This document shows, piece by piece, positions 38,329 to 50,626 of a stretch of DNA of 64,000 nucleotides. Location of the stretch: contig JBMNMA010000007.1 in assembly GCA_050953105.1 (NCBI GenBank), forward strand, positions 130,461 through 194,460, written 5' to 3'. Source of the DNA: Eubacteriales bacterium (GTDB taxonomy: Bacteria; Bacillota; Clostridia; Oscillospirales; CAG-382). Numbering within the stretch: the stretch's first letter is position 1; every line of letters begins with the position of its first letter. The notes under the pieces were generated by a model that did not search any database, had not been told where the DNA came from, and saw only the letters and a list, made by a program, of their open reading frames with translations. Both the position numbers and the translations under genes were made by a program.

Positions 38329-38358
38329 ACGGGCGGAAAACTCCGCCCGTATTTGTTT
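38329..38358 (+). terminator. Terminator of the NUDIX gene
   Basis: Stem acgggcgga / tccgcccgt followed by atttgttt. Confidence 0.7.
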
Positions 38359-38462: not shown

Positions 38463-38539
38463 TGGCAGGGATAGCTGGATTTGAACCAGCGGATGCAGGA
38501 GTCAAAGTCCTGTGCCTTAACCAGCTTGGCGATATCCCT
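38463..38539 (-). tRNA. tRNA-Gln (anticodon UUG), encoded CCA
   Basis: The reverse complement reads agggata-tc-gccaagctggttaaggc-a-caggacttTTGactcctg-catc-cgctggttcaaatccagc-tatccct-g-cca. The D arm is near-identical to E. coli tRNA-Gln. Confidence 0.85.
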
Positions 38540-38765: not shown

Positions 38766-38795
38766 TTGACAAACCCCCATTGATGATGTTAAGAT
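38766..38795 (+). promoter_or_regulatory. Putative promoter upstream of the small TM ORF and pilus operon
   Basis: ttgaca (38766-38771), 18-nt spacer, taagat (38790-38795). Confidence 0.4.
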
Positions 38796-38870: not shown

Positions 38871-39017
38871 ATGGCTGAAAAAGACACCAAGAAAGAAGTC
38901 AAAAAAGAAACGAAACAGTCTTTTTGGTTGAAGCGCATCTCAACTCCTGTGGGTCTGATAATCCTGTTTGCCGAACTGGCACTTGCGGTCGGAATCGGCC
39001 TTGTGGTTTGCCTGTAA
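38871..39017 (+). CDS. Unannotated 48-aa tail-anchored membrane peptide (below the ORF-track cutoff)
   Basis: Translation is MAEKDTKKEVKKETKQSFWLKRISTPVGLIILFAELALAVGIGLVVCL. The strong RBS GGAGG lies 8 nt upstream. The N-terminus is Lys-rich and there is a single C-terminal TM helix. Confidence 0.5.
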   Translation: MAEKDTKKEVKKETKQSFWLKRISTPVGLIILFAELALAVGIGLVVCL

Positions 39018-39064: not shown

Positions 39065-39093
39065 GGAAACCCCCATTTTGGATGGGGGTTTCC
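39065..39093 (+). other. Stable 11-bp hairpin in the leader between the small ORF and the pilin gene
   Basis: Stem ggaaaccccca / tgggggtttcc with loop ttttgga. No clear T-run follows, so it may be an attenuator, a processing or stabiliser element, or a weak terminator. Confidence 0.5.
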
Positions 39094-39142
39094 GCAAATT
39101 ATCGCAAAATAATGTAAAACCCTGGGAAACGGGGGAACTCCA

Positions 39143-39820
39143 ATGAAAAATCTGCTTGCAATGAGCGCCCGCCGGGGCTTTACTTTAGTGGAGCTGGTGG
39201 TTACCATGGCGCTGGTGGTTACCATTTCGGCAACCGCCATCGGCATTGTGGTGATAACTTCCAAAACAGTAGGCACCGGTGAAAATCTTTATGCCCGCAT
39301 AACCGAACTTCGAAACACCAAAACCGCCGTTATACTTTGGGCAACCTCCTTTGATGATGCCGAAAACACCCTTGTGGTGGAAAACAACCGTCTTTCGGTC
39401 ATAAACAGCAAAGGGGAGGAAGTTGCCTTTTTAGCCATTGACGGCGGAAGGCTGTATCTGGCCAAAAATATATCCGCCGGGGACAGCTTGGATGGCGAAG
39501 ATGTGCAAAGCAACGAGATGGGTGAAACTAAATTTACCGTAATAAAATCCGCATCATTTGAACTCTTGAATAAAATTCAAAGTGATGAAGGCGGCGAAAA
39601 CAACGATAACAACGATAACAGCGAAATAGATGATGACGGTGAAAGCTTCGATGCCGGTGAAAATGATGAAATTCCAACCGACACAAACTCCAAACCTGAT
39701 GTATCCGGCAATCTGATAAAGTGCACCATCACCTACACCTATGAAAACGGGGAGGATATTTACACCTTTGTGTTTGTCCTCCGTGCGGCAGAATGTATTG
39801 CCGAAACATCCGACGGTTAA
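39143..39820 (+). CDS. Type IV pilin / pseudopilin (major pilin candidate)
   Basis: The class III signal is MKNLLAMSARRG|FTLVELVVTMALVV with Glu at +5. An acidic insert, GGENNDNNDNSEIDDDGESFDAGENDE, is present. Confidence 0.8.
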   Translation: MKNLLAMSARRGFTLVELVVTMALVVTISATAIGIVVITSKTVGTGENLYARITELRNTKTAVILWATSFDDAENTLVVENNRLSVINSKGEEVAFLAIDGGRLYLAKNISAGDSLDGEDVQSNEMGETKFTVIKSASFELLNKIQSDEGGENNDNNDNSEIDDDGESFDAGENDEIPTDTNSKPDVSGNLIKCTITYTYENGEDIYTFVFVLRAAECIAETSDG

Positions 39821-39871: not shown

Positions 39872-41479
39872 ATGGCTGAAAAAAACCCCAATCAATCACC
39901 CGAAAAGACCGGTCTTAACGCCAGTGACTTTTACACCGTGGACTACGGCCTTGAGGGAGATATAACCTTAACCGACATTACCCCCCTACCTCCCCTAGAC
40001 GATGAGGGAAAAGGCAAGGGCCAAAAAGGGGGAAAAAGGTCGAAAACCGGAAAAAAAGACAAATCTAAATCCAAGGAAGACGGTATAGATGCCGACATCT
40101 ACGGAGAAAACGACGGGGAGGGTTTTACACCCTCTGCCGATATTTCCGTTTCTTCCGGTGAGGAAGGGAAAAAGAAAAAATCCTTACTACCCTTCAAGTC
40201 AAAGGCGGCAAAGCGGCCGGTTCCCAAGATAAAGTGGCAAAAGGATTTGTCCTTTGCAGGAATACTTTTAAATAAGATCAAGGCATCCCACCCGGCAATA
40301 ATCGTTGGCGTGGACATGCATGCCAAAACAATAAATATCATGGACATTAAGGGGACAAACGGCAAAACCGCCCATGTAACAAGGGTGCCCTTTAAGGAAA
40401 ACCCCGAGGATGATAAGTTCTTTGACTTGCTTTCCGGGGCACTAATGGAGTTTGCCAAATCCAGGCCCCCCGAAAAGTCATTGAACTTTTATATAATACT
40501 CCCAGACAACTGCGCGGCGCTGGACATTATCACCATACCCGCCATAAGCAAAAAGCGGGTGCAGGAATCCTTGGAAATAAATATTTCCGAAACCTATAAG
40601 GATATAAACGCCCTGCGGATGTCCTGCTCCACCGTGGTGTCCTCCAACCGGATGGTTACCTATACCCTTACGTCAATACGCAAAAAGCTGCTTCAAAACT
40701 ACAAGCAGGCTCTTGAGCGTGTAAAAATGTCCCCCAAGGTATTCACCTTTTCGGCGGCGGCGACGCTAAACAGTGTGTTTGCCCTTCAGTCCCGCAACCG
40801 GGGCAGGTCCTTTGTGTTTATGGACGTAAAGAAGCACACCACCCGGTTTATAATCGCTGCCAAGGGAAAGCTGGTGGGATTTTACAACCACCCCATAGGC
40901 TATGACATTCTAAAGCCCGACCGGGTGGTAAACGAATACACCCTTTATAACCACGACATAGCTGAACTTGCGGTGTTAAACGCCGAGGAAAAGGCAAAGC
41001 GTAAAGAGTTAACCCTCCTTGATGCCGAGGCTGAGGAGGATAGCGAATCCTTCCTCAACCAGGTGTTGGGGGTAGGAACGGAAATTCCGGCCGATGCACC
41101 CACTCAGAACGAAGCAAAAAAAACACCCAAGGTGCTTCTTAAAAAGACCCCCAAGCGGCTGCCGAAATTTATGCTCCGTCCCGAACCCGAAACACCGGAG
41201 GGGATGATAGCCGAAAACTTCCGCATACTGCTTAAATGGGCCCTCCTTTTGGTGCGTTCCAACAAGGGGCTGGGAAAAGGCTGCGACCCGGAATATATCC
41301 TTGTCAACATTCCGCCCCAGTTTGCCTTTGTAATAGATGAGGTTAACAAAGAGAAAAAGGAAAACGGAATAGAATTTCGTAAATTTACCACCGACCATAT
41401 AAGCCCCAAGGTTTCGGCCAATTTGGAACTGTATGGCGCCGTATATACCGACACATACAATCTCCAGCACAACTTTTAA
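39872..41479 (+). CDS. PilM-like (actin-like ATPase fold) pilus assembly protein with a ~125-aa polybasic disordered N-terminal extension (tentative)
   Basis: After a Lys/Gly-rich region, the segment AIIVGVDMHAKTINIMDIKG resembles the phosphate-1 start of PilM/FtsA-like proteins. Position within the pil operon supports this. There is no TM helix. Confidence 0.45.
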   Translation: MAEKNPNQSPEKTGLNASDFYTVDYGLEGDITLTDITPLPPLDDEGKGKGQKGGKRSKTGKKDKSKSKEDGIDADIYGENDGEGFTPSADISVSSGEEGKKKKSLLPFKSKAAKRPVPKIKWQKDLSFAGILLNKIKASHPAIIVGVDMHAKTINIMDIKGTNGKTAHVTRVPFKENPEDDKFFDLLSGALMEFAKSRPPEKSLNFYIILPDNCAALDIITIPAISKKRVQESLEINISETYKDINALRMSCSTVVSSNRMVTYTLTSIRKKLLQNYKQALERVKMSPKVFTFSAAATLNSVFALQSRNRGRSFVFMDVKKHTTRFIIAAKGKLVGFYNHPIGYDILKPDRVVNEYTLYNHDIAELAVLNAEEKAKRKELTLLDAEAEEDSESFLNQVLGVGTEIPADAPTQNEAKKTPKVLLKKTPKRLPKFMLRPEPETPEGMIAENFRILLKWALLLVRSNKGLGKGCDPEYILVNIPPQFAFVIDEVNKEKKENGIEFRKFTTDHISPKVSANLELYGAVYTDTYNLQHNF

Positions 41480-41489
41480 GGAGGATGAC

Positions 41490-41924
41490 ATGAAAAAGCA
41501 TTCCTCAAAAAAAGGCGTTTCGGTGGTGGAAGCGGTTATCGCCATGGCACTGATTTCGATTGTGGCGTCGGCCTCCTTTACCGCAATAACCGCCTCAATA
41601 AGGACAAATGCCAGAGCAGTGATGCGTTTTAAGTCTATAAGTATTGTGGGCGACTGCCTTGAATGCTTTAAATATTCCGACACGCCGGAGGAATTTGAAA
41701 AATCCCTTGAATTTGCCGGAATGGTAAAGGATGTTGATTATAGCTTCTTGAATTTTCCCGTAGGTTCTAATGCCTATTTATATATTTTCAACCAAGGGGA
41801 ATATCAGGTGGTTGTAACTATCAACTGGGAAAGCGGCGAGTTTAACGCCTCTGCCACCACATCGCAAGAAGAAGTGTTCTACACCTTCGGTGACGGTTCG
41901 GACGGTTATATAAAGGGGGGTTAA
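41490..41924 (+). CDS. Minor pilin / pseudopilin
   Basis: MKKHSSKKG|VSVVEAVIAMALISIV with Glu at +5. RBS is GGAGG. Start is at 41490, not 41433. Confidence 0.7.
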   Translation: MKKHSSKKGVSVVEAVIAMALISIVASASFTAITASIRTNARAVMRFKSISIVGDCLECFKYSDTPEEFEKSLEFAGMVKDVDYSFLNFPVGSNAYLYIFNQGEYQVVVTINWESGEFNASATTSQEEVFYTFGDGSDGYIKGG

Positions 41925-41927
41925 GTT

Positions 41928-42293
41928 ATGCGAAGGCTGTTAAAAATCTCTCAAAAGGCCAGACGTGGAATGGCCATTGAAACCGCTATCTACACCATGG
42001 TGGTGGTATTTATAATGATATCCACCATTATGTATGTGGCGGTCAATATGGTTAAGGACGATATAACCAACAACGACGCTTTTATTGAAAAATATGCCGC
42101 CATCGACCAGATAGGGGAGGAATTTGTTGCCAATGTCTTTGGCGACGGAGAATTTGACGAAAACGCCTATACGGGGTATCTGGTTACGGTAACCGATAAT
42201 AACCTTGAGGTTGTGGTTGTGGAATCTTCCACCGGGAAGACGGTTCTTGTGGTAAAAATCGATAACGGAAAAGTCGTCAAATGGACGCATTAA
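41928..42293 (+). CDS. Minor pilin-like protein (atypical signal)
   Basis: MRRLLKISQKARRG|MAIETAIYTMVVVFIMI has a hydrophobic helix after Gly, but Glu is at +4 rather than +5. Confidence 0.5.
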   Translation: MRRLLKISQKARRGMAIETAIYTMVVVFIMISTIMYVAVNMVKDDITNNDAFIEKYAAIDQIGEEFVANVFGDGEFDENAYTGYLVTVTDNNLEVVVVESSTGKTVLVVKIDNGKVVKWTH

Positions 42294-42303
42294 GGAAGAT
42301 TAA

Positions 42304-43089
42304 ATGATTACTGTTGTATATATTTTAACCGCCGTTCTGGCCCTCTGCATAGGAAGCTTTTTGAATGTGGTAATATACCGGGTGCCGGAGGGAAAGTCGG
42401 TTGCCTTCCCCCCTTCCCATTGCCCCAAATGCCAAAACCAGATTAAGTGGTATGACAATATTCCCGTATTGTCTTATATATTCCTGCGTGGAAAATGTAG
42501 AAACTGCGGGAAAAAAATATCATTACAGTATCCCGCCGTGGAGCTTGCAAACACACTGCTTTGGATACTTTGCGTTTATATGTTTTGGGAAAAGTCGCCT
42601 GTCTATGCCTTGATATGCATGGCCATCTGCTCGGTATTTATCTGTATTTTTGTTATAGACATTCACTGTCATTTGATTTTTTACCGCTTTCAGATATCGC
42701 TTTTTGTTTTAACAGCGGCATCTGTTTTAACAAAGCAGGGCCCGTCGTTAACCGACCGTCTTATAGGCTTTGGTGCCGGGGCGGTGGTGTTAACCCTTAT
42801 TTATCTCACCTTCCTTGTGATTATAAAACGGGAGGGATTAGGCATAGGCGACATTATATTAATTGCCACAAGCGGACTGTTAACAGGCTGGCAGGGGCTT
42901 ATTCTGGTTATGCTTATATCCTCTGTTTCCGCTTGCTTTGTGCTTTTGGCTGTGCGAATAGCCAGTAAAAAGCACGACCGCTTTGCCGAATACCCCTTTG
43001 CCCCCTTTATTGTGTTTGCCGATCTTATGACATTGTTTTTCGGCGGGCAGATTATTGAATCTTATCTGCGTTTAGTGATCGGAGGTTAA
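42304..43089 (+). CDS. pilD: Prepilin peptidase (A24 family)
   Basis: The N-terminal segment is IGSFLNVVIYR with the CPKC...CRNC zinc pairs. The motif GLGIGDIIL contains a catalytic Asp. The protein is polytopic. Confidence 0.9.
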   Translation: MITVVYILTAVLALCIGSFLNVVIYRVPEGKSVAFPPSHCPKCQNQIKWYDNIPVLSYIFLRGKCRNCGKKISLQYPAVELANTLLWILCVYMFWEKSPVYALICMAICSVFICIFVIDIHCHLIFYRFQISLFVLTAASVLTKQGPSLTDRLIGFGAGAVVLTLIYLTFLVIIKREGLGIGDIILIATSGLLTGWQGLILVMLISSVSACFVLLAVRIASKKHDRFAEYPFAPFIVFADLMTLFFGGQIIESYLRLVIGG

Positions 43090-43093
43090 CCTA

Positions 43094-44302
43094 TTGCCCA
43101 AGTATAAATACGTTGCGGTCAATATAAATAAAGTAAAATTCACCGGCACTTTCATTGCCGAAAATGAAAAGGACCTGGCTGTCCAGCTTGCAAAGCAGAA
43201 TTTATATCTGGTGTCATGTACCCAGGTCAAAAGAGCTTCGCCCAGCAACTTCTTTTCGGTTACCGGTAAAGTAAAACTGAATGAAATAACCACCTTCTGC
43301 CGCCAGTTTTCAATAATGATAAACGCTGGTATATCGGTGGTAAATTCCATCGGGATTTTAAAAAACCAAAAATATACGTCTTATTTTAAAAGCATTCTCG
43401 ACGTGGTTTATGACGATATAAAAGGCGGCTTGTCCTTGTCGGAAGCCATGAAAAAGCATGACAAGGTGTTCCCCAACTTTTTCAGATCAATGGTTTATGT
43501 GGGTGAAATAAGCGGTCAGCTTGACAGGGTGCTGCTTTCCCTTGCAGACTATTACGAAAAAGACAGGGAAATAAAGAAAAAAGCAAAATCGGCATTGATT
43601 TACCCTGGAATACTTTTATCCCTTACGGTTGTCATAGTCGTTATAATGCTCGTTTACGTAATTCCCACCTTCCGCTCTGCTCTTGAGAATATGGAAGTGG
43701 AAATGCCGGCGATAACCGCGACAATTTATGCCATGTCCGACTGGCTTCTTGCCAACTGGAAGTATTTGCTTCTCGGAGCATTCCTGTTTGTGTTTCTTAT
43801 AATGGCGTTTAAGAAAACCAAAAAGGGAACATACTTTTTCGACACTATTAAGCTGAAAATCCCGATATATAGAAAGGTTCAGATAAACCTTATTACATCC
43901 CGGTTTGCCCGGGGTTATGCATTGCTTTTATCAAGCGGTATGGACGTGGTGGAAGCAATGGAAACCATGTCGCTGGTGTTGGGCAATACCAATGTAGAAA
44001 AGCGGTTTAAAAAAGCGGTGGAGGAAGTCCGGCTGGGCAACACCATAACCGGATCCCTTGGGGCATACGATATGTTCCCGGACATACTGCTGCAAATGGT
44101 GGCGGTAGGGGAAAAAACCGGTACGCTCAGCGAGGTTTTAACCAGGGCCTGTACCTACTTTGACGACCAGGTGGATTCCTCCCTTTCTGCGCTTACGGCC
44201 ATGCTCCAGCCCATACTGATTACAATTTTGGGCGGTTCGGTGGGAACCCTCTTTTACGCCATATATGCGCCGATGATATCAATAATGCAAACCTATCTAT
44301 AA
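43094..44302 (+). CDS. pilC: Type IV pilus platform protein (GspF/PilC family)
   Basis: It has two T2SSF repeats (FCRQFSIMINAGISV; FARGYALLLSSGMDV) and three TM segments. Start codon is TTG. Confidence 0.9.
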   Translation: MPKYKYVAVNINKVKFTGTFIAENEKDLAVQLAKQNLYLVSCTQVKRASPSNFFSVTGKVKLNEITTFCRQFSIMINAGISVVNSIGILKNQKYTSYFKSILDVVYDDIKGGLSLSEAMKKHDKVFPNFFRSMVYVGEISGQLDRVLLSLADYYEKDREIKKKAKSALIYPGILLSLTVVIVVIMLVYVIPTFRSALENMEVEMPAITATIYAMSDWLLANWKYLLLGAFLFVFLIMAFKKTKKGTYFFDTIKLKIPIYRKVQINLITSRFARGYALLLSSGMDVVEAMETMSLVLGNTNVEKRFKKAVEEVRLGNTITGSLGAYDMFPDILLQMVAVGEKTGTLSEVLTRACTYFDDQVDSSLSALTAMLQPILITILGGSVGTLFYAIYAPMISIMQTYL

Positions 44303-44341: not shown

Positions 44342-46030
44342 ATGAATATAAATTTCGATATATTTCAGTATTTTGTCTATAAAAAGCTTTTAAAACGCAA
44401 AGACGCCGACGAGATGCTGGTGGAATGCACCCGTTTGGGGCTTACGCCGGAGGAATATCTCAAAAAGAAGGAGCTGGTTACCGAGCTTGAGGAGGTAACC
44501 ACCCTTGCGGAATATTACAACCTTCCCACCGTTCAGGTGGACATGCTTGACATAGACAAATCCCTGCTTTCTAATTTTACCTACGAATTTATGCGTAAGC
44601 ATAAGTTTTTGCCCGTTTCAATAGACAAAAACGGTGTTTTGCTGGTGGCCATAGGCAAGCCCTTATCCTGCTCCGCCCTTTCCATGATATCCACCTTCTA
44701 TTCGGGGTTTATGGATTTTATTTACGTTCCCCCCACCCAGATAGACGTGTATATCGACTCGATTGTGGCGGTTATCCAGACGGCCAAGGCACTTCATGCC
44801 ATCAGCCAGCCGGATACTAACAAACCGCAAGAGAAGGTAACATCCACCGTAGACGGCCTTCAGGATGAGGACGATGTATTAAGCAATCCCGCCGTCCGGC
44901 TGGTTGACTCGATTATTAAAGAGGCCATACCCTCCCGGGCCAGCGATATTCATGTAGAACCATTTGCCTCGGTGGTTAAGGTCAGATACCGTATTGACGG
45001 CTCGTTACGTGACCGGGCGGAATTTCCCATAGAGGCCTATGGGGCAATTTGTGCCAGAATGAAAATTTTATCAAACATGAATATAGCCGAGCGGCGTATA
45101 CCCCAGGACGGGCGTATCCACCAGACAATAAACGGCAAGGAATACGACTTCCGTGTGTCCTCCCTCCCCACCATTTACGGTGAAAAGTTTGTTATACGAA
45201 TTTTGGACAAATCCTCCTTCTATTTCACCCGTCAGGATTTGGGATTTACTCCGGAGGAAAATATCCTTATTGATAAAGCCCTTGCCCGGCCTAACGGCAT
45301 AATATTACTGACCGGACCCACCGGCTGCGGCAAATCCACCACCCTTTACTCCTTCTTAAAGGAAATAAATAAAGCTGACGTTAACATTATTACGGTAGAA
45401 GACCCGGTGGAATATACCATGCCGGGGATAAACCAGGTTCAGGTCAACACAAAAGCAAACCTCACCTTCGCCTCGTCACTAAGGTCTATACTCCGTCAGG
45501 ACCCCGACGTTATTATGATAGGTGAGATTCGTGACGAAGAAACCGCCCAGATAGCCGTCAGAGCGGCCATAACCGGCCACCTTGTTTTCTCCACACTCCA
45601 TACCAACGATGCACCGGGTGCCATAACCCGTCTTATTGACATGGGTACGGTAAGTTACCTCCTTGCCGATGCGCTGGTGTGCGTTATCGCCCAACGACTT
45701 GTTAAAAAGCTCTGCCCCGCCTGTAAAAAGAAGGGAAAAACCAATGCTCAGGAAATGGAGATATTAAAGCTTGACGAACCCGCAACCATCTGCCGCCCCG
45801 TAGGCTGCCAGTTTTGCGGTAATTCAGGCTATCGGGGAAGGCTTGGGGTGCACGAGATAATGTATATAAACGAAACACTCAGGGACGCCATTGTAGGTGG
45901 CATTAGCATTGAGGATTTAAGAAAGCTTGCAAAGGAACACGGCCTTGTTCCCCTTTGGGATTCCTGCCGTAACTTTGTTCTCCAGGGACTTACCTCCATT
46001 GACGAGCTTAAAACACTAAACATAGAATAA
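44342..46030 (+). CDS. pilB: Type IV pilus assembly ATPase (GspE/PilB family)
   Basis: Walker A GPTGCGKSTT, Asp box, Walker B VIMIGEIRD, His box TGHLVFSTLHTN, and the tetracysteine motif CPAC...CQFC. An N-terminal T2SSE_N-like domain is present. Confidence 0.95.
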   Translation: MNINFDIFQYFVYKKLLKRKDADEMLVECTRLGLTPEEYLKKKELVTELEEVTTLAEYYNLPTVQVDMLDIDKSLLSNFTYEFMRKHKFLPVSIDKNGVLLVAIGKPLSCSALSMISTFYSGFMDFIYVPPTQIDVYIDSIVAVIQTAKALHAISQPDTNKPQEKVTSTVDGLQDEDDVLSNPAVRLVDSIIKEAIPSRASDIHVEPFASVVKVRYRIDGSLRDRAEFPIEAYGAICARMKILSNMNIAERRIPQDGRIHQTINGKEYDFRVSSLPTIYGEKFVIRILDKSSFYFTRQDLGFTPEENILIDKALARPNGIILLTGPTGCGKSTTLYSFLKEINKADVNIITVEDPVEYTMPGINQVQVNTKANLTFASSLRSILRQDPDVIMIGEIRDEETAQIAVRAAITGHLVFSTLHTNDAPGAITRLIDMGTVSYLLADALVCVIAQRLVKKLCPACKKKGKTNAQEMEILKLDEPATICRPVGCQFCGNSGYRGRLGVHEIMYINETLRDAIVGGISIEDLRKLAKEHGLVPLWDSCRNFVLQGLTSIDELKTLNIE

Positions 46031-46045
46031 CGGGGAAGGCGTAAT

Positions 46046-47593
46046 ATGAAGTTTAACGACTGCGTTCATTTTCTATATGACGGCGGCGAGCTTGAAAGAA
46101 TAGCCTCACCCTATGTCGCCCTTGCCGGAGGTGGGATTTTTTCCCTAAAGAAAGCCCCCTCCTGCGACAGGCTTATTGCAAGTATCGCCAAGGCGCAGGA
46201 TAAATACTTAGACAAAGAAAACATTAACAATGCCCTTAAATCGCTGTCGGAAAACAGCGACAAGGACATTGCTTTTGTATTTCCCGTCATTTTACGGGAA
46301 ATACTGCTTGAAAAAAACGACTGCTGCTACGAAACAAACTCGGTAAGCCTTGAGGTGCTGGAATACGAACGGGAAATTATAAAAAAAGCCAACAAGCTGG
46401 TTTTGAAAAACCTTTCCCCCGATATTTTAGCCTACCGGCAGATGCTTAAAATAACAAGAGAGGAAAATTTATCCGGCAAAGAGGTTAATACCCTTATTTG
46501 CCACATGAAGGAATATTACGGCGTGAATGACGAGGACGACCGGGTTATAAGAGCAAACCTCGGTATTTACCCCACTACCGAAAAATTCCAAACCCACACA
46601 AAGGCTCAGATTGAAAAGGCAAGGCAGGCACTTCAGAAAGCGGGGCTTGTGTTTTCGATAAGAAAAAGCGACGGGGTGATTTATGATATTATCCCGGAGG
46701 AAATTGCCGCAGGCATTAAAAAATATTTCGGCATGGAGGTAAAGGCCTCTGCTTATGAAAAAATAATAAAATACATGCTTGCAGAGTATAAAAAGCAGTA
46801 TTTTATCGATACTTTGACCGCCTTCGGCATAGAAGTTCCCCAAAAGCCCAATTCGGCAAACCTATCATTGCTTGCAAAGACAAAGCTTAAACCCAGCGAC
46901 CTTATGGGGGGCAACAAGCAGTTCGAAGGCCTTTCCCGCAAGGCCCTTACCGACTGGTGCGAGGAGCTGGGATTAAACCGCACCGGCTCAAAGCAGGCGC
47001 TTATAGAAAAGCTGCTTGACTATTACGACCGTTCGGTGGAGGGTGAATACAAAAGCGACTACCGGGTGAGGTTTTATAATCATTACGAATCGATTGCCTC
47101 CCTTAACGCCGAAATATTCCAAACAGGTGAGCTTTCGGGCATATCCATAGGTGCTGACGGCATTTTTTCCGAAACCACCAATTATATATTTGAAATTCTG
47201 TTATCGTTAAAACCCGACCGCCTTTTGTCAAAGGCAAACATTACGGGTAAGATAACAAGCGGTGATAAGGCATATCTGTATGCCGCCGTTGCGTCGGAAT
47301 CTCCTGTTAACCTTGCCGAGCATATATCTAGTCTTTCAGCTGTTGTGGATGGTGAAGGAAGGGAAAGGGTGGCGGCAGTTATCGTGGTGGCAGATGACTT
47401 TACCGACGATTCGGTTAAGGAATGCGTTATGTATTACGCCAAAACCGACGTTCAGATATGCTTGATAAAAGCATCAGAATTAAAGGAATTAGCCGATAAA
47501 TGGACAGCAAAAGGGGAGCAAACCCCTTTTCCCATAAAATATCTCAGGCAAAACGGAAGGTTCGACAGAAAGGGATGCGAATTTATAGGCTGA
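46046..47593 (+). CDS. Uncharacterised cytoplasmic protein with a SAP DNA-binding motif and a restriction-endonuclease-like C-terminal region
   Basis: RBS GGGGAAGG lies 15 nt after the pilB stop. The SAP-like helix-extended-helix is LSRKALTDWCEELGLNRTGSKQALIEKLLDYY (aa 296-327). The C-terminal AAVIVVADDFTDDSVKE...ICLIKASELKELA has the layout of Mrr/FokI-type nuclease folds. No signal peptide or TM helix. Confidence 0.7.
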   Translation: MKFNDCVHFLYDGGELERIASPYVALAGGGIFSLKKAPSCDRLIASIAKAQDKYLDKENINNALKSLSENSDKDIAFVFPVILREILLEKNDCCYETNSVSLEVLEYEREIIKKANKLVLKNLSPDILAYRQMLKITREENLSGKEVNTLICHMKEYYGVNDEDDRVIRANLGIYPTTEKFQTHTKAQIEKARQALQKAGLVFSIRKSDGVIYDIIPEEIAAGIKKYFGMEVKASAYEKIIKYMLAEYKKQYFIDTLTAFGIEVPQKPNSANLSLLAKTKLKPSDLMGGNKQFEGLSRKALTDWCEELGLNRTGSKQALIEKLLDYYDRSVEGEYKSDYRVRFYNHYESIASLNAEIFQTGELSGISIGADGIFSETTNYIFEILLSLKPDRLLSKANITGKITSGDKAYLYAAVASESPVNLAEHISSLSAVVDGEGRERVAAVIVVADDFTDDSVKECVMYYAKTDVQICLIKASELKELADKWTAKGEQTPFPIKYLRQNGRFDRKGCEFIG

Positions 47594-47651
47594 ATTTAAG
47601 GGAAAGGAAGGTGTATAATACCGTTTTAAATTAAAAACCGGTATGAAATAA

Positions 47652-50540
47652 ATGGCTAAAAGACATTTGTATTCACGGGTCCCGGCAAAGGCAAGCATGT
47701 ATCAGTTAACCGACGGTTATGATACCTTCGCCCGTTCCGGCGGCCTTGACAAAGATTTTATATTTTCAGAAATGGGAAGGCTTTTCGAGTATTCCCCAGG
47801 CAAAGCCGAAAGCGGCATGATACTCGACGGTGTTCTTCCTCCTACCTATGCCAGCCTTCGCACTCCGGGAGGAGATATTGTGCACTCCTGTATAACCTAC
47901 CTCCCCAGGGATTTCACCGGCGAACGTTATGCCGTTATGATAAATTCCCTTGTCCTTGACAAGGATGAAAAGCAGGAAGTATACACAAAAAAAGAGGCAG
48001 CCTATTTCAACCCCGGATTGTTTGACGAAAAAATATCCGACTTTAAAATAACCTCCGCCGATTATGCCCCCATAACCGACTACCCCGAAACCAGATACGA
48101 AACAGCTCCATTAAAAGATATTTCCCAAATAGTCGGTGAATATGACGAAAGGGTAATAAAGCGGTTGCTGTTTGCTCTTATATATGTAACGTCATATAAA
48201 AACAAATACGTGTTTATCGCCCCCGTAATGCCGGCGGAAGAGCTTTCCCAATGGGGACTTGAGCTTATTAACGCTCTTATGCAGCTTTTCCCCGCCTTTG
48301 TCAGGGAGCGGCTGTCCTATATAACCTTTATAACCGAATACAAAAAGATGAACTGCTTTAACGTCAAGTTTGTCCACTCGGACGATATTCAAACCGCCGG
48401 CAAGGGATTTATCTTCGACATGACACCAAGCAAGGCGGACAACATAAAGGACAGCGAATACAAGGAATGCGAAAGCGAAATCAACTTTTTGTATGAGCTT
48501 TGCGAAAACAAGACAAAGAGGGACGCATGGACATCATTTTGCGATAATATTTCATTAAATGATGATAATTACGAAAAGCCCTCACTTAATGCTTTCTGCG
48601 ATCTGGTGCTGCTGTTCAAGCAGGCCCGCTACGAGGGAGAGCCGGAGGAAAATGACCTTGTAGCCAACGATAACGCCTGTTTTAAGCTTATTTCCACCTA
48701 CCAAAGCCACAGAAACGTCCTTGAATTAAAGGACAGACTTAATATTCTGGCACCGCTTATTTCAAGATACTGCCGCACCCGGGCTGCCATACCCGCAAAT
48801 ATTTTTAGTAGAATAACCAAGCTTTATCCTAAAGAACCTGAGGAATGCCGGGTTGTTATAATGGACGGCTTGCTTGAGCTTATCCATACCGACGCCATGC
48901 GGGAAAAGCTGTTTTCCTTTATTAAAAGCGTCTTTGACGGCGAAAACGCCGAAAGACGGGAAATTATATGCGAAAATCTGTCAAGGGTTTTTTACGGCGG
49001 CTTTCTGCAGGAGCAGATTTTAACATTATTCGACACCGCCTTTGAAAAAGAAACCTACCAAAGCAAAACCAACATTATATCAAAGCTCCTACTTTCCATA
49101 CGCACAGAGGGAATACGGGATAAGGTGTTTGAATTTTTAAAAGCCCACCGGGACCACATGACCGAGGACCACCGGAATTTGGTTTATTCCGCTTTGGTTG
49201 ACGCAATTCCGTTTAAGGACAAGACCGCGTCAATGGCCGTTGAGGTTATCGACCATTACACCCAAATCGAGTCACCGGCCGCCCAGAACGAGATAGTGTA
49301 TGAGCTTTACGCTATGCTTGAGGAGGACGACTCTGTTGCAGGTGTCCTTGTTACCGACAGCGATATTTCCCGCAAAGGCCCCGTTTCACTGGGAATAATT
49401 AAAAAAATCGTCAGAAAAAACGCTAAGAAAAAGCTTTTCACTCTAATGCTTTCCCGCCTTGCGGGGCAAAAGCTTTACGGAATTGCCAACGCCGTGGAAG
49501 GGGTGTGGCTGTTTGACGAAACCGACAGCGAGGGAATTAACAAGGCATTGTCCGACAAGCTTAGAATATTGTTTGAGGAAGCAGGGCAAAACACAACCCT
49601 TGAGGATATGATAACGCTTCATAAACGCCTTACGGAATCCCCCCTAAACAAGGGCGATTTCAGACAGGGGGTGTATAAAAAGCTATGTCTGTCCTTCCTT
49701 TATCCGCTGATGGGAGAAAGGTATATAAAAGCCCTTGACCCAAGGCAGTATGCCAAACCCATATCCTATTATGCCGGCTTTGCTTTGACCACAGAGGGAA
49801 TATCCTCCTTTGCCGGTGTTAAGACGGTTATTCAGTTTGCCGACCTTGTAAAGGCCATAAACGACCTAAAACCGGTGGATGCACTGGATATAGTGTTTAA
49901 GCTTGAAATACCGCCTGAGCTTGTTCAGCCTGCCTTATACCGGCTTAAAGCGGAATGCAAGGGAGTGTTTGAGCTTTCGGCAAATTCAAACTCTGCTCAG
50001 GTGGTTGATGTCTGCTCGTCGGGCTGTTATGCCGTTGCTACTGCGGCTGCGGAATATATCGAGCATAAGCGGATAAATATGCCACGGCTGTTTGACGAAA
50101 ACCTGAAGGTTTTGGAAAAACGCCTTCAGGACGACTTGAATAAAGCCGAAGATCCCCCTAAAAACTTCAAAAAAGCGTCACTTGAGGCCCACGACACGGC
50201 TTTGGTAAAATCCCTTGAGGGTTTGACACGGTTTTGCGCCAATGTGTGCAAAACCCGGTTAGATGAAATGGCAAAGCAGAAGCTGTGCTACGCCCATATA
50301 AGCGACCTTGACTATATTCTGGTGGATTTGTTTAACAGCCATTTCAAGTCACTTAAAAAGGAAGTGATGGGGTTAAGCCATCACCTGCGGGCGACAGATG
50401 CCATTATCGCCGAAAAGGTAAAGAATAATTACGGTAAAAAGTCACTTCCCGAACGGGATGATACCGCAACTCCCACTTCATCAGCCACAACTGCATCACA
50501 AAAATCCAAGGGATTTAGTCTATTTAAAAGAAATAAATAA
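47652..50540 (+). CDS. Uncharacterised 962-aa cytoplasmic, largely alpha-helical protein
   Basis: The ORF is long, clean and in the same orientation, and ends just before the operon terminator. The N-terminus is HLYSRVPAKASMYQLTDGYDTFARSGGLDKDFI. No TM helix or signal peptide. The tail is basic and Ser/Thr-rich. The RBS is weak, so the start is uncertain (alternative Met16 at 47697). Confidence 0.7.
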   Translation: MAKRHLYSRVPAKASMYQLTDGYDTFARSGGLDKDFIFSEMGRLFEYSPGKAESGMILDGVLPPTYASLRTPGGDIVHSCITYLPRDFTGERYAVMINSLVLDKDEKQEVYTKKEAAYFNPGLFDEKISDFKITSADYAPITDYPETRYETAPLKDISQIVGEYDERVIKRLLFALIYVTSYKNKYVFIAPVMPAEELSQWGLELINALMQLFPAFVRERLSYITFITEYKKMNCFNVKFVHSDDIQTAGKGFIFDMTPSKADNIKDSEYKECESEINFLYELCENKTKRDAWTSFCDNISLNDDNYEKPSLNAFCDLVLLFKQARYEGEPEENDLVANDNACFKLISTYQSHRNVLELKDRLNILAPLISRYCRTRAAIPANIFSRITKLYPKEPEECRVVIMDGLLELIHTDAMREKLFSFIKSVFDGENAERREIICENLSRVFYGGFLQEQILTLFDTAFEKETYQSKTNIISKLLLSIRTEGIRDKVFEFLKAHRDHMTEDHRNLVYSALVDAIPFKDKTASMAVEVIDHYTQIESPAAQNEIVYELYAMLEEDDSVAGVLVTDSDISRKGPVSLGIIKKIVRKNAKKKLFTLMLSRLAGQKLYGIANAVEGVWLFDETDSEGINKALSDKLRILFEEAGQNTTLEDMITLHKRLTESPLNKGDFRQGVYKKLCLSFLYPLMGERYIKALDPRQYAKPISYYAGFALTTEGISSFAGVKTVIQFADLVKAINDLKPVDALDIVFKLEIPPELVQPALYRLKAECKGVFELSANSNSAQVVDVCSSGCYAVATAAAEYIEHKRINMPRLFDENLKVLEKRLQDDLNKAEDPPKNFKKASLEAHDTALVKSLEGLTRFCANVCKTRLDEMAKQKLCYAHISDLDYILVDLFNSHFKSLKKEVMGLSHHLRATDAIIAEKVKNNYGKKSLPERDDTATPTSSATTASQKSKGFSLFKRNK

Positions 50541-50545
50541 TAAAA

Positions 50546-50576
50546 ACGGCATCCGTTAAAATGGATGCTGTTTTTA
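50546..50576 (+). terminator. Rho-independent terminator ending the 39143-50540 transcription unit
   Basis: Stem acggcatcc / ggatgctgt followed by a T5 run. Confidence 0.8.
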
Positions 50577-50589
50577 CATATTGGAGGGT

Positions 50590-50620
50590 AAAAAAACAAC
50601 CAACCCGGTGGGGTTGGTTG
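50590..50620 (-). terminator. Terminator of the minus-strand coaD-side gene string
   Basis: A 10-bp stem, caaccaaccc / gggttggttg, with a T7 run in minus orientation. Confidence 0.75.
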
Positions 50621-50626
50621 TATGAT

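Follow-up and report, generated by a model that had tools for sequence, protein, structure and literature searches.

A GAP1-type protein conserved at the end of a type IV pilus operon in gut and rumen Clostridia, joined in one small clade by a nuclease-dead FokI relative

What is encoded by the two large open reading frames (ORFs) that follow the assembly ATPase gene of a type IV pilus operon, and do they belong to the pilus? The question arises from a 64-kb stretch of DNA of a Eubacteriales bacterium (contig JBMNMA010000007.1), called the window throughout, in which an ORF of 515 amino acids (aa), here P1, and one of 962 aa, here P2, lie 3' of pilB (44342-46030) on the same plus strand. By its domains and its gene neighbourhood across genomes, P2 is a GAP1-type protein and, in Oscillospiraceae-like Clostridia of gut and rumen, the conserved end of the type IV pilus operon. 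We lean towards a role of P2 in the cytoplasm as a partner of the pilus motor, be it as scaffold, regulator or localiser. P1 is, judged by its distribution, outside the conserved pilB-P2 unit, having been inserted in one small clade and then kept. The two genes are:

46046-47593, plus strand: P1, nuclease-dead FokI-family protein of 515 aa, inserted between pilB and P2 in one lineage
47652-50540, plus strand: P2, GAP1-N2-type protein of 962 aa, conserved at the end of the pil operon

An earlier reading of the window from its sequence alone (the sequence-only reading) had described both genes as firmly attached to the pil operon at its 3' end, and this linkage held, with gaps of 15 nucleotides (nt) between pilB and P1 and 58 nt between P1 and P2, and a terminator found only after P2. 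The pilB stop codon TAA is followed by cGGGGAAGGcgtaat and the ATG of P1, and a Shine-Dalgarno-like run, GGGGAAGG, lies ahead of P1 at 46033-46040.

P2 was divided into three parts:

47652-48026, plus strand: N-domain, P2 residues 1-125, with the GAP1-N2 match on 17-122
48138-48419, plus strand: middle alpha/beta domain GAP1-M (Pfam PF20014), residues 163-256
48444-50441, plus strand: alpha-solenoid, residues ~265-930 (~670 aa), from the AlphaFold2 (AF2) model

The match of P2 to Pfam GAP1-N2 (PF20013) reached 36.6 bits (cut-off 24) and was found in nearly all homologues. The match to GAP1-M was exactly at the cut-off of 24, with 24.0 bits, and was stronger in homologues, for example 42.7 bits in P0193. 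Beyond these two domains, with GAP1-C also looked for, P2 showed weak helical Pfam matches only. The AF2 model, built from 104 homologues, had a mean predicted local distance difference test score (pLDDT) of 90.9 and showed a small alpha/beta domain at ~160-260 and an uninterrupted solenoid at ~265-930. The N-domain, ordered strand-strand-helix-strand-strand-strand-helix in the model, was the best-conserved region, with 50% mean pairwise identity and invariant D24, T25, D87, E91 and R92. Its longin/roadblock-like strand order is merely a lead, because the profile of the P2 N and M domains drew nothing from the PDB sequences, even at E 10. The solenoid core at residues 381-530 (48792-49241), which carries the motifs LIHTDxMREKLF and VFYGGFLQ, was conserved at 49% identity, and the C-terminal half at 531-930 was variable (20-23%). 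Foldseek against the PDB returned generic HEAT/ARM solenoids only. These scaffolds (karyopherin-beta2, SF3B1 and CAND1) share their fold class with P2 265-930, but at E ~1e-3, a template modelling (TM) score below 0.2 and 10-12% identity this is generic repeat likeness and not homology. In P0193, residues 715-803 inside the variable C-terminal solenoid matched the Pfam Tepsin VHS/ENTH-like domain with 27.3 bits (cut-off 27).

The maximum Kyte-Doolittle mean over 19 residues was 1.14 for P2 and 1.01 for P1, compared with 2.3-3.0 for the pilins, PilC and PilD. Neither protein had a transmembrane-like hydrophobic segment or a prepilin motif, and neither matched the pilus families of Pfam and NCBIfam (PilM, PilN, PilO, PilT and pilins), in agreement with the sequence-only reading, which had taken both to be cytoplasmic and not standard pilus parts. 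NCBIfam as a whole had no model that matched P1 or P2. The remark of the sequence-only reading that the start of P2 recalls N-terminal domains from NTPase-associated conflict-system proteins, with helical repeats behind it, was borne out by GAP1-N2 and the solenoid. Profile and structure searches placed P2 in the GAP1 family and P1 in the FokI family. Both families are known, so nothing is categorically new in what had been put forward as a candidate undescribed system.

GAP1-N2 and GAP1-M were defined for the partner of 'double GTPases' (DO-GTPases) in predicted conflict systems (Kaur, Burroughs, Iyer, Aravind 2020; PMC7159879). In that study GAP1 is encoded next to, usually downstream of, or fused to the DO-GTPase with which it co-evolves, the pair is stated not to be exchanged, and GAP1-N and GAP1-M are predicted to communicate with the P-loop switch of their own system (PMC7159879). 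Pili are not mentioned in the paper, and the text of its supplement contains no pilus-ATPase terms. In searches of a paper library, GAP1-N2 was mentioned in no further paper and these pilus operons of Oscillospiraceae in none, and neither these nor PDB sequence searches yielded biochemical or structural data for the GAP1 family. That a type IV pilus operon should have a GAP1-type protein among its conserved components, with a paralogue beside pilT, appears to be undescribed; the sequence-only reading, too, had known of no pilus system that couples motor genes to proteins like P1 and P2.

To survey the P2 family, one genome per species was used, which gave 80 loci with a P2 homologue, 76 of them with readable upstream DNA. 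All 80 loci were from metagenome-assembled genomes of gut or rumen Clostridia, with Oscillospiraceae, Acutalibacteraceae, Ruminococcus, Faecousia and Subdoligranulum among the names. In 64 of the 76 loci, the gene immediately 5' of P2 on the same strand encoded a PilB orthologue (61-92% identity). The median gap was 32 nt, and the gaps were mostly between 8 and 150 nt despite 60-80% divergence of the P2 sequence. The gene order orf535-pilD-pilC-pilB-P2 was conserved, orf535 being a cytoplasmic protein gene described below, and the pilB-P2 arrangement was also present in two metagenome relatives. The gene 3' of P2 was variable (38 clusters among 49 loci, 23 of them on the opposite strand), and P2 is therefore the last conserved gene of the operon. 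Around distant PilB proteins from diverse metagenomes (37-52% identity, among the matches listed) a P2-like ORF was found at 0 of 80 loci; the positive control for its detection recovered 80 of 80. The distances of P2 followed those of PilB, PilC, PilD and orf535 (r 0.64-0.85), consistent with vertical co-inheritance.

P1 was present at none of the 80 P2 loci. In the closest relative, L008 (PilB 93% and P2 66% identical), the pilB-P2 gap was 54 nt and P1 was absent. The comparison across Clostridia that the sequence-only reading had proposed confirmed P2 behind pilB, whereas its picture of P1 and P2 as a coupled pair did not survive, since the two share this slot in the window and two relatives only.

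In the clade of the window itself, represented by UBA1389, JAQVQF, CAYOGQ and one Logan contig, a paralogue of P2 was encoded directly upstream of a second motor gene, a T2SSE-family ATPase of 343-357 aa. The genes are:

L085, 2919-3950: pilT after the P2 paralogue at 114-2909
L094, 10809-11840: pilT after the P2 paralogue
L028, 12772-13845: pilT after the P2 paralogue
L087, 12849-13880: pilT after the P2 paralogue

The gap between paralogue and ATPase was ~10 nt in L085 and L094, and in L028 the genes overlapped. The L085 ATPase passed the NCBIfam PilT/PilU model with 411.9 bits (cut-off 319); within the 64-kb window there was no pilT. In a neighbour-joining tree the pilT-linked paralogues were sister to the P2 of the window, which points to a lineage-specific duplication. 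With the paralogue beside pilT, each motor ATPase gene in the window's clade therefore has its own GAP1-like neighbour. On the 3' side of these pilT genes we found an unrelated Crp-family regulator, thioredoxin, rhodanese and NAD(P)-disulphide oxidoreductase.

We propose motor binding because GAP1-N and GAP1-M are predicted to talk to a P-loop switch, and the adjacent P-loop enzymes here are PilB and PilT. In this proposal the conserved N/M module and the solenoid core 381-530 would bind the P-loop motor ATPase PilB and/or orf535, and the paralogue would contact PilT. Binding of P2 would control the activity of the motor or its placement on the PilC platform, the fast-evolving C-terminal solenoid would dock lineage-specific partners or cues, and a DO-GTPase switch adaptor would have been re-used in evolution for another NTPase.

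Four points weigh against such a role. Physical contact of P2 with any pilus protein is something we infer. The mirror-tree and partial correlation analyses gave no PilB-specific signal: the partial correlation of P2 with PilB was weak (0.04-0.27) and that with orf535 was higher (0.34-0.44), so that orf535 is slightly favoured, and PilB not singled out, as a putative direct contact. The negative result for a DO-GTPase, given below, covers 64 kb of the genome, and such a gene may lie elsewhere in it. Finally, at least seven P2 homologues were flanked by greA and pepF, and pil genes were absent from the 8-10 kb around them:

L005, L047, L049, L067, L071, L077, L079: ackA-greA-P2-pepF loci

Adjacency to pilB is therefore dispensable in some lineages. 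These homologues were nested among pilB-linked ones in the tree, and pepF was also found 3' of P2 in the related pilB-linked loci L065, L066, L069, L076, L078 and L080, which suggests that the pil genes were lost or relocated and P2 was retained.

The greA-P2-pepF settings also speak for the explanation that P2 is unrelated to pilus function, for example a switchless conflict-system sensor carried at a permissive operon end. The pilB-P2 junction does take unrelated insertions, P1 in the window and in L010 (854-2884, plus strand) a secreted 676-aa protein with an N-terminal signal/lipoprotein-like segment, and the C-half of P2 evolves rapidly, like the predicted sensor parts of conflict systems. 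We nevertheless consider a mere passenger unlikely, as the adjacency was held in 64 of 76 species despite 60-80% P2 divergence, the paralogue-pilT arrangement is a second independent adjacency, and there were no effector genes, no PADLOC match and no plasmid or phage copies.

One P2 homologue was found with a GTPase-like gene. This protein of 1121 aa ends a seven-gene operon in L029 (129-13309, plus strand; Clostridia bacterium RGIG5330), which has the arrangement published for GAP1-N2 systems. P2 aligned with it at 33% identity over 761 columns (E 7e-107), and the P2 solenoid was homologous to that of the L029 protein up to residue ~737. P2 is therefore a full-length GAP1 homologue whose genomic partner has switched from a GTPase to pilus ATPases. 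The candidate GTPase of L029, with 581 aa, carries two N-terminal Zn ribbons and the motifs GSHNSGKT, VFVDGPGE and NKFD, and gave weak Pfam DO-GTPase2 and DO-GTPase1 matches. The other products of the operon are proteins of 422, 624, 272 and 866 aa of unknown nature and a 409-aa protein with multiple transmembrane segments, and no Pfam family was found for these accessory proteins. A relation of the 866-aa protein to the P2 N+M profile was considered and rejected (hhalign probability 0.5%).

Like P2, the GAP1 proteins of DO-GTPase systems are large and cytoplasmic, with GAP1-N2 followed by GAP1-M and a variable C-terminal part. Unlike them, P2 has PilB (64 of 76 loci) or PilT as its neighbour, with DO-GTPase adjacency found only in L029. 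The FNIII-repeat, tubulin, vWA, HSP70 and kinase partners of those systems and their effector domain are absent around P2, and the inheritance pattern of P2 is that of a housekeeping operon.

P2 might still be GTPase-associated, binding a DO-GTPase encoded elsewhere and relaying its switch to the pilus motor. An analogy exists in Myxococcus, where SgmX, an effector of MglA-GTP, stimulates type IV pilus formation. P2 keeps both GAP1-N2 and GAP1-M with invariant polar residues, and its full-length homologue in L029 is encoded with a DO-GTPase-like gene. However, phmmer at E <= 1 detected nothing homologous to the L029 GTPase in the window or among the remaining P2 and P1 loci, L001-L094 with flanks up to 10 kb. 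Moreover, GAP1 is reported to co-evolve with the DO-GTPase and to be encoded beside it or fused to it (PMC7159879), whereas the neighbouring NTPases here are PilB and PilT. We regard a relay of this kind as improbable, and a partnership of P2 with the pilus motor is the reading towards which we lean. It also corresponds to the motor regulator or scaffold that was the third of the suggestions made from the window sequence, next to a DNA-processing accessory and a defence cassette, and of the three it fits P2 best.

P1 was a different case. Two regions were recognised in it:

46940-47029, plus strand: SAP motif (Pfam), P1 residues 299-328
47153-47590, plus strand: FokI-cleavage-like domain, P1 residues ~370-515

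The AF2 model of P1 (pLDDT 81.6) gave full-length FokI as its top Foldseek matches (2fok_B and 1fok_A, E 2e-5), and also N.BspD6I. The likeness to FokI and N.BspD6I (1fok, 2fok, 2ewf) covered the whole-length fold, from a recognition-like N-terminal part to the cleavage-like domain, with probability 1.00 over ~587 aligned columns, at a TM-score of only 0.3. With the P1 profile, weak SAP domains only were found among the PDB sequences, and FokI was not detectable. The match of P1 to Pfam SAP (E 1.6e-4, 21.6 bits) was just under the cut-off of 23.9; six of eight aligned family members had SAP matches, the best of which, with 28.5 bits, was over it. Pfam FokI_cleav_dom was matched in the homologue P0114 with 26.9 bits (cut-off 25). 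P1 differs from FokI in its inserted SAP motif, in the replacement of the catalytic positions by T400 (47243-47245), A413 (47282-47284) and V415 (47288-47290), and in having no methyltransferase partner: none was found in the operon, and the stretch at ~30-56 kb held only the rRNA enzymes RsmG and RsmD. Of the nuclease-like protein proposed by the sequence-only reading, the FokI-type fold and, probably, the SAP motif stood and the working active site did not.

A profile search of 1.84 billion representative proteins gave 481 clusters related to P1, of which ~90 cover the cleavage domain. The catalytic triad was D-D-K in 82 and D-E-K in 2 of these ~90 representatives, within the family motif PDG...WD-x-K, at positions that we take to be aligned with D450, D467 and K469 of FokI. 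All three residues were lost only in pil-linked copies, which read TAV in the window and TSA and TTV in P0108 and P0109. These two are exactly the proteins at the pilB-P1-P2 slot of L088 and L089, and the slot is filled in three genomes including the window. The three pil-linked copies were 55-63% identical with intact reading frames and a dN of 0.25-0.36; the dN/dS ratio was not computable because dS was saturated. The dead domain was conserved like the rest of P1 (64% identity). With intact ORFs and a dead domain as conserved as the remainder, P1 is under selection and not decaying, and this conservation indicates that it is under purifying selection after losing catalysis. In the JAQVQF relative, the pilB-P1 spacer is 260 nt long (15 nt in the window) and contains a tandem repeat of about six copies of GTAAGCGTT (L088 4762-4810).

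Catalytically intact relatives of P1 adjoined NERD and MrcB_N/NOV_C genes in defence-island-like surroundings (L090 506-4199; L175 3500-5140), and tblastn found one weak relative in Halorubrum virus Humcor1, where it is annotated as hypothetical (20% identity, E 2e-6). These neighbours and the haloarchaeal virus relative fit a mobile, restriction-type origin of P1. They also offer some support for the view that P1 and P2 are the two genes of a defence or conflict cassette that uses the pil promoter and senses pilus-dependent phage entry, as does the predicted action of the GAP1 family in conflict systems (PMC7159879). We find such a cassette very improbable. The P1-P2 pair occurs in three genomes only, including the window, and P1 has lost D, D and K, so that the supposed cassette would have no effector activity. 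PADLOC-DB 2.0 gave 0 families for P1 and P2 at E <= 1, no effector or DO-GTPase gene was found nearby, and the flanks are housekeeping. In tblastn searches of plasmids and phages there was no plasmid copy of P1 or P2 and no phage copy of P2, and P2 distances track the pil genes as expected from vertical inheritance. The defence cassette read from the window sequence was thus not upheld.

P1 may have been exapted as a non-cutting factor that binds DNA or protein and is specific to a small clade, a suggestion that we hold with some doubt. A related and similarly doubtful suggestion is that P1, without cutting, acts inside the cell through its SAP and FokI-type recognition parts, either handling DNA for a DNA-uptake pilus or regulating the pil operon in a sequence-specific manner. 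Its SAP motif and full-length FokI-like fold, its purifying selection after catalytic loss and its tight embedding in the operon, with the 15-nt gap and Shine-Dalgarno-like run, would agree with this. On the other side, no competence genes were found in the Pfam-scanned part of the window (~30-56 kb), and 64 operons that are equivalent in other respects, that of L008 among them, lack P1, so it is not needed for the pilus. A wider scenario, in which GAP1 was domesticated for pilus motors across a large group of gut Clostridia and the window's clade gained one paralogue for PilB and extension and one for PilT and retraction, with the dead FokI relative P1 also recruited there, possibly tying DNA or transcription to the motor, is tentative, conceivable to us and less secure than the motor partnership of P2.

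The remaining genes of the operon are listed in order:

39143-39820, plus strand: pilin-like protein of 225 aa, prepilin motif RRG/FTLVE (Pfam N_methyl E 1.4e-5; NCBIfam IV_pilin_GFxxxE)
39872-41479, plus strand: orf535, conserved cytoplasmic protein, family unassigned, no transmembrane segment
41433-41924, plus strand: second pilin-like protein (Pfam N_methyl E 3e-4)
41928-42293, plus strand: 121-aa protein with a single N-terminal transmembrane segment (hydropathy maximum 2.35, residues 24-42)
42304-43089, plus strand: prepilin peptidase PilD (Pfam A24_N_bact 8e-38, Peptidase_A24)
43094-44302, plus strand: platform protein PilC (Pfam T2SSF 1.4e-57)
44342-46030, plus strand: assembly ATPase PilB with MshEN N-domain (Pfam T2SSE 8.7e-134, MshEN 7e-11)

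The best NCBIfam match of PilB was type_IV_pilB with 549.7 bits, under the cut-off of 675.65. No match to orf535 was found in Pfam or NCBIfam and nothing meaningful in the PDB sequence search. Its residues ~144-535 were conserved in most pilB-P2 operons (27-38% identity, 77% in L008), and its N-terminal ~140 residues were low-complexity and lysine-rich. Because actin-like phosphate motifs (VGVDMHAKTINI and FVFMDVKKHTT) were seen by eye, orf535 may be a very divergent PilM, a likeness judged by eye only. As listed, the second pilin shares 47 nt with orf535; its true start is probably the ATG at 41490 (MKKHSSKKG/VSVVE), which fits the prepilin motif KKG/VSVVE and removes the overlap. Conservation of the 121-aa single-segment protein was weak in other loci.

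Transcription signals were located at both ends of the operon:

38766-38795, plus strand: promoter-like TTGACA-18-TAAGAT with TG, upstream of the pil operon, from a consensus scan only
50549-50568, both strands: terminator hairpin GCATCC-N8-GGATGC 3' of P2, with T-runs on each side, between convergent genes

The terminator scan reported the hairpin on the minus strand only, and the plus-strand T-run TGTTTTT was read directly from the sequence. A further hairpin lay at 50596-50621. Terminator-like matches within the operon were weak and intragenic, and their number was near the shuffle expectation (25 versus 16.7 +/- 4.6). At the other end, a strong terminator (38329-38350) and a tRNA (38466-38539, minus strand) set the upstream nudix gene apart from the promoter-like site. 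A consensus scan also found an internal promoter-like TTGACG-18-TAGAAT at 45999-46028 (plus strand), overlapping the pilB stop, and an extended -10-like TGTATAAT was read in the P1-P2 spacer at 47612-47619 (plus strand). From these internal elements P1 and/or P2 may be transcribed independently of pilB; read-through from pilB, and with it co-transcription of P1 and P2, is therefore taken as likely and unproven. A hairpin between a Shine-Dalgarno-like run and the P2 start was rejected, as shuffles were equal (z -0.05, window) and it was not common to L008 or L089. Ahead of the first pilin gene we noted a 48-aa ORF (38873-39016, plus strand; MAEKDTKKEV...GLVVCL) with a C-terminal hydrophobic segment and a good Shine-Dalgarno sequence in front, and, just 5' of that gene, a perfect 11-bp hairpin GGAAACCCCCA/TGGGGGTTTCC at 39067-39095 without a T-run. 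Together they could serve the pil genes as a leader or as an attenuator. The operon is flanked by housekeeping genes: secA, mnmE, mnmG, rsmG and the nudix gene precede it, and 2-hydroxyacid dehydrogenase, rsmD and uvrC lie beyond P2.

The ATPases of type IV pili have known cytoplasmic partners in PilM, PilZ-FimX, the c-di-GMP-binding MshEN domain and SgmX of Myxococcus. P2 as we propose it would be like these in controlling the activity or placement of PilB or PilT from the cytoplasm. SgmX is, similarly to P2, a helical-repeat protein of ~1000 aa, and is tied to a GTPase switch. P2 differs in that PilM, PilZ and TPR have no Pfam or NCBIfam match in it, and in that its gene lies inside the operon directly after pilB.

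To our knowledge, few studies deal with the type IV pili that monoderm gut commensals carry (Oscillospiraceae, Ruminococcus-like and Acutalibacteraceae), and none explains how their motors are controlled. The P2 family (~900 aa, encoded directly after pilB in most of these genomes) is a concrete candidate for the missing pilus regulator or scaffold, and the pilT-linked sister strengthens the case. The link of P2 to the pilus breaks the published rule of an unexchanged DO-GTPase-GAP1 pair, and the pil operon offers a simpler, housekeeping setting for learning the function of the GAP1 N and M domains. In P1 we see a clear case of a restriction-type nuclease losing its catalysis and then being maintained by selection in new genomic surroundings. 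If the proposed role of P2 is true, these proteins would represent pilus motor regulators of a new class, and GAP1-N/M would be a general adaptor for P-loop NTPases.

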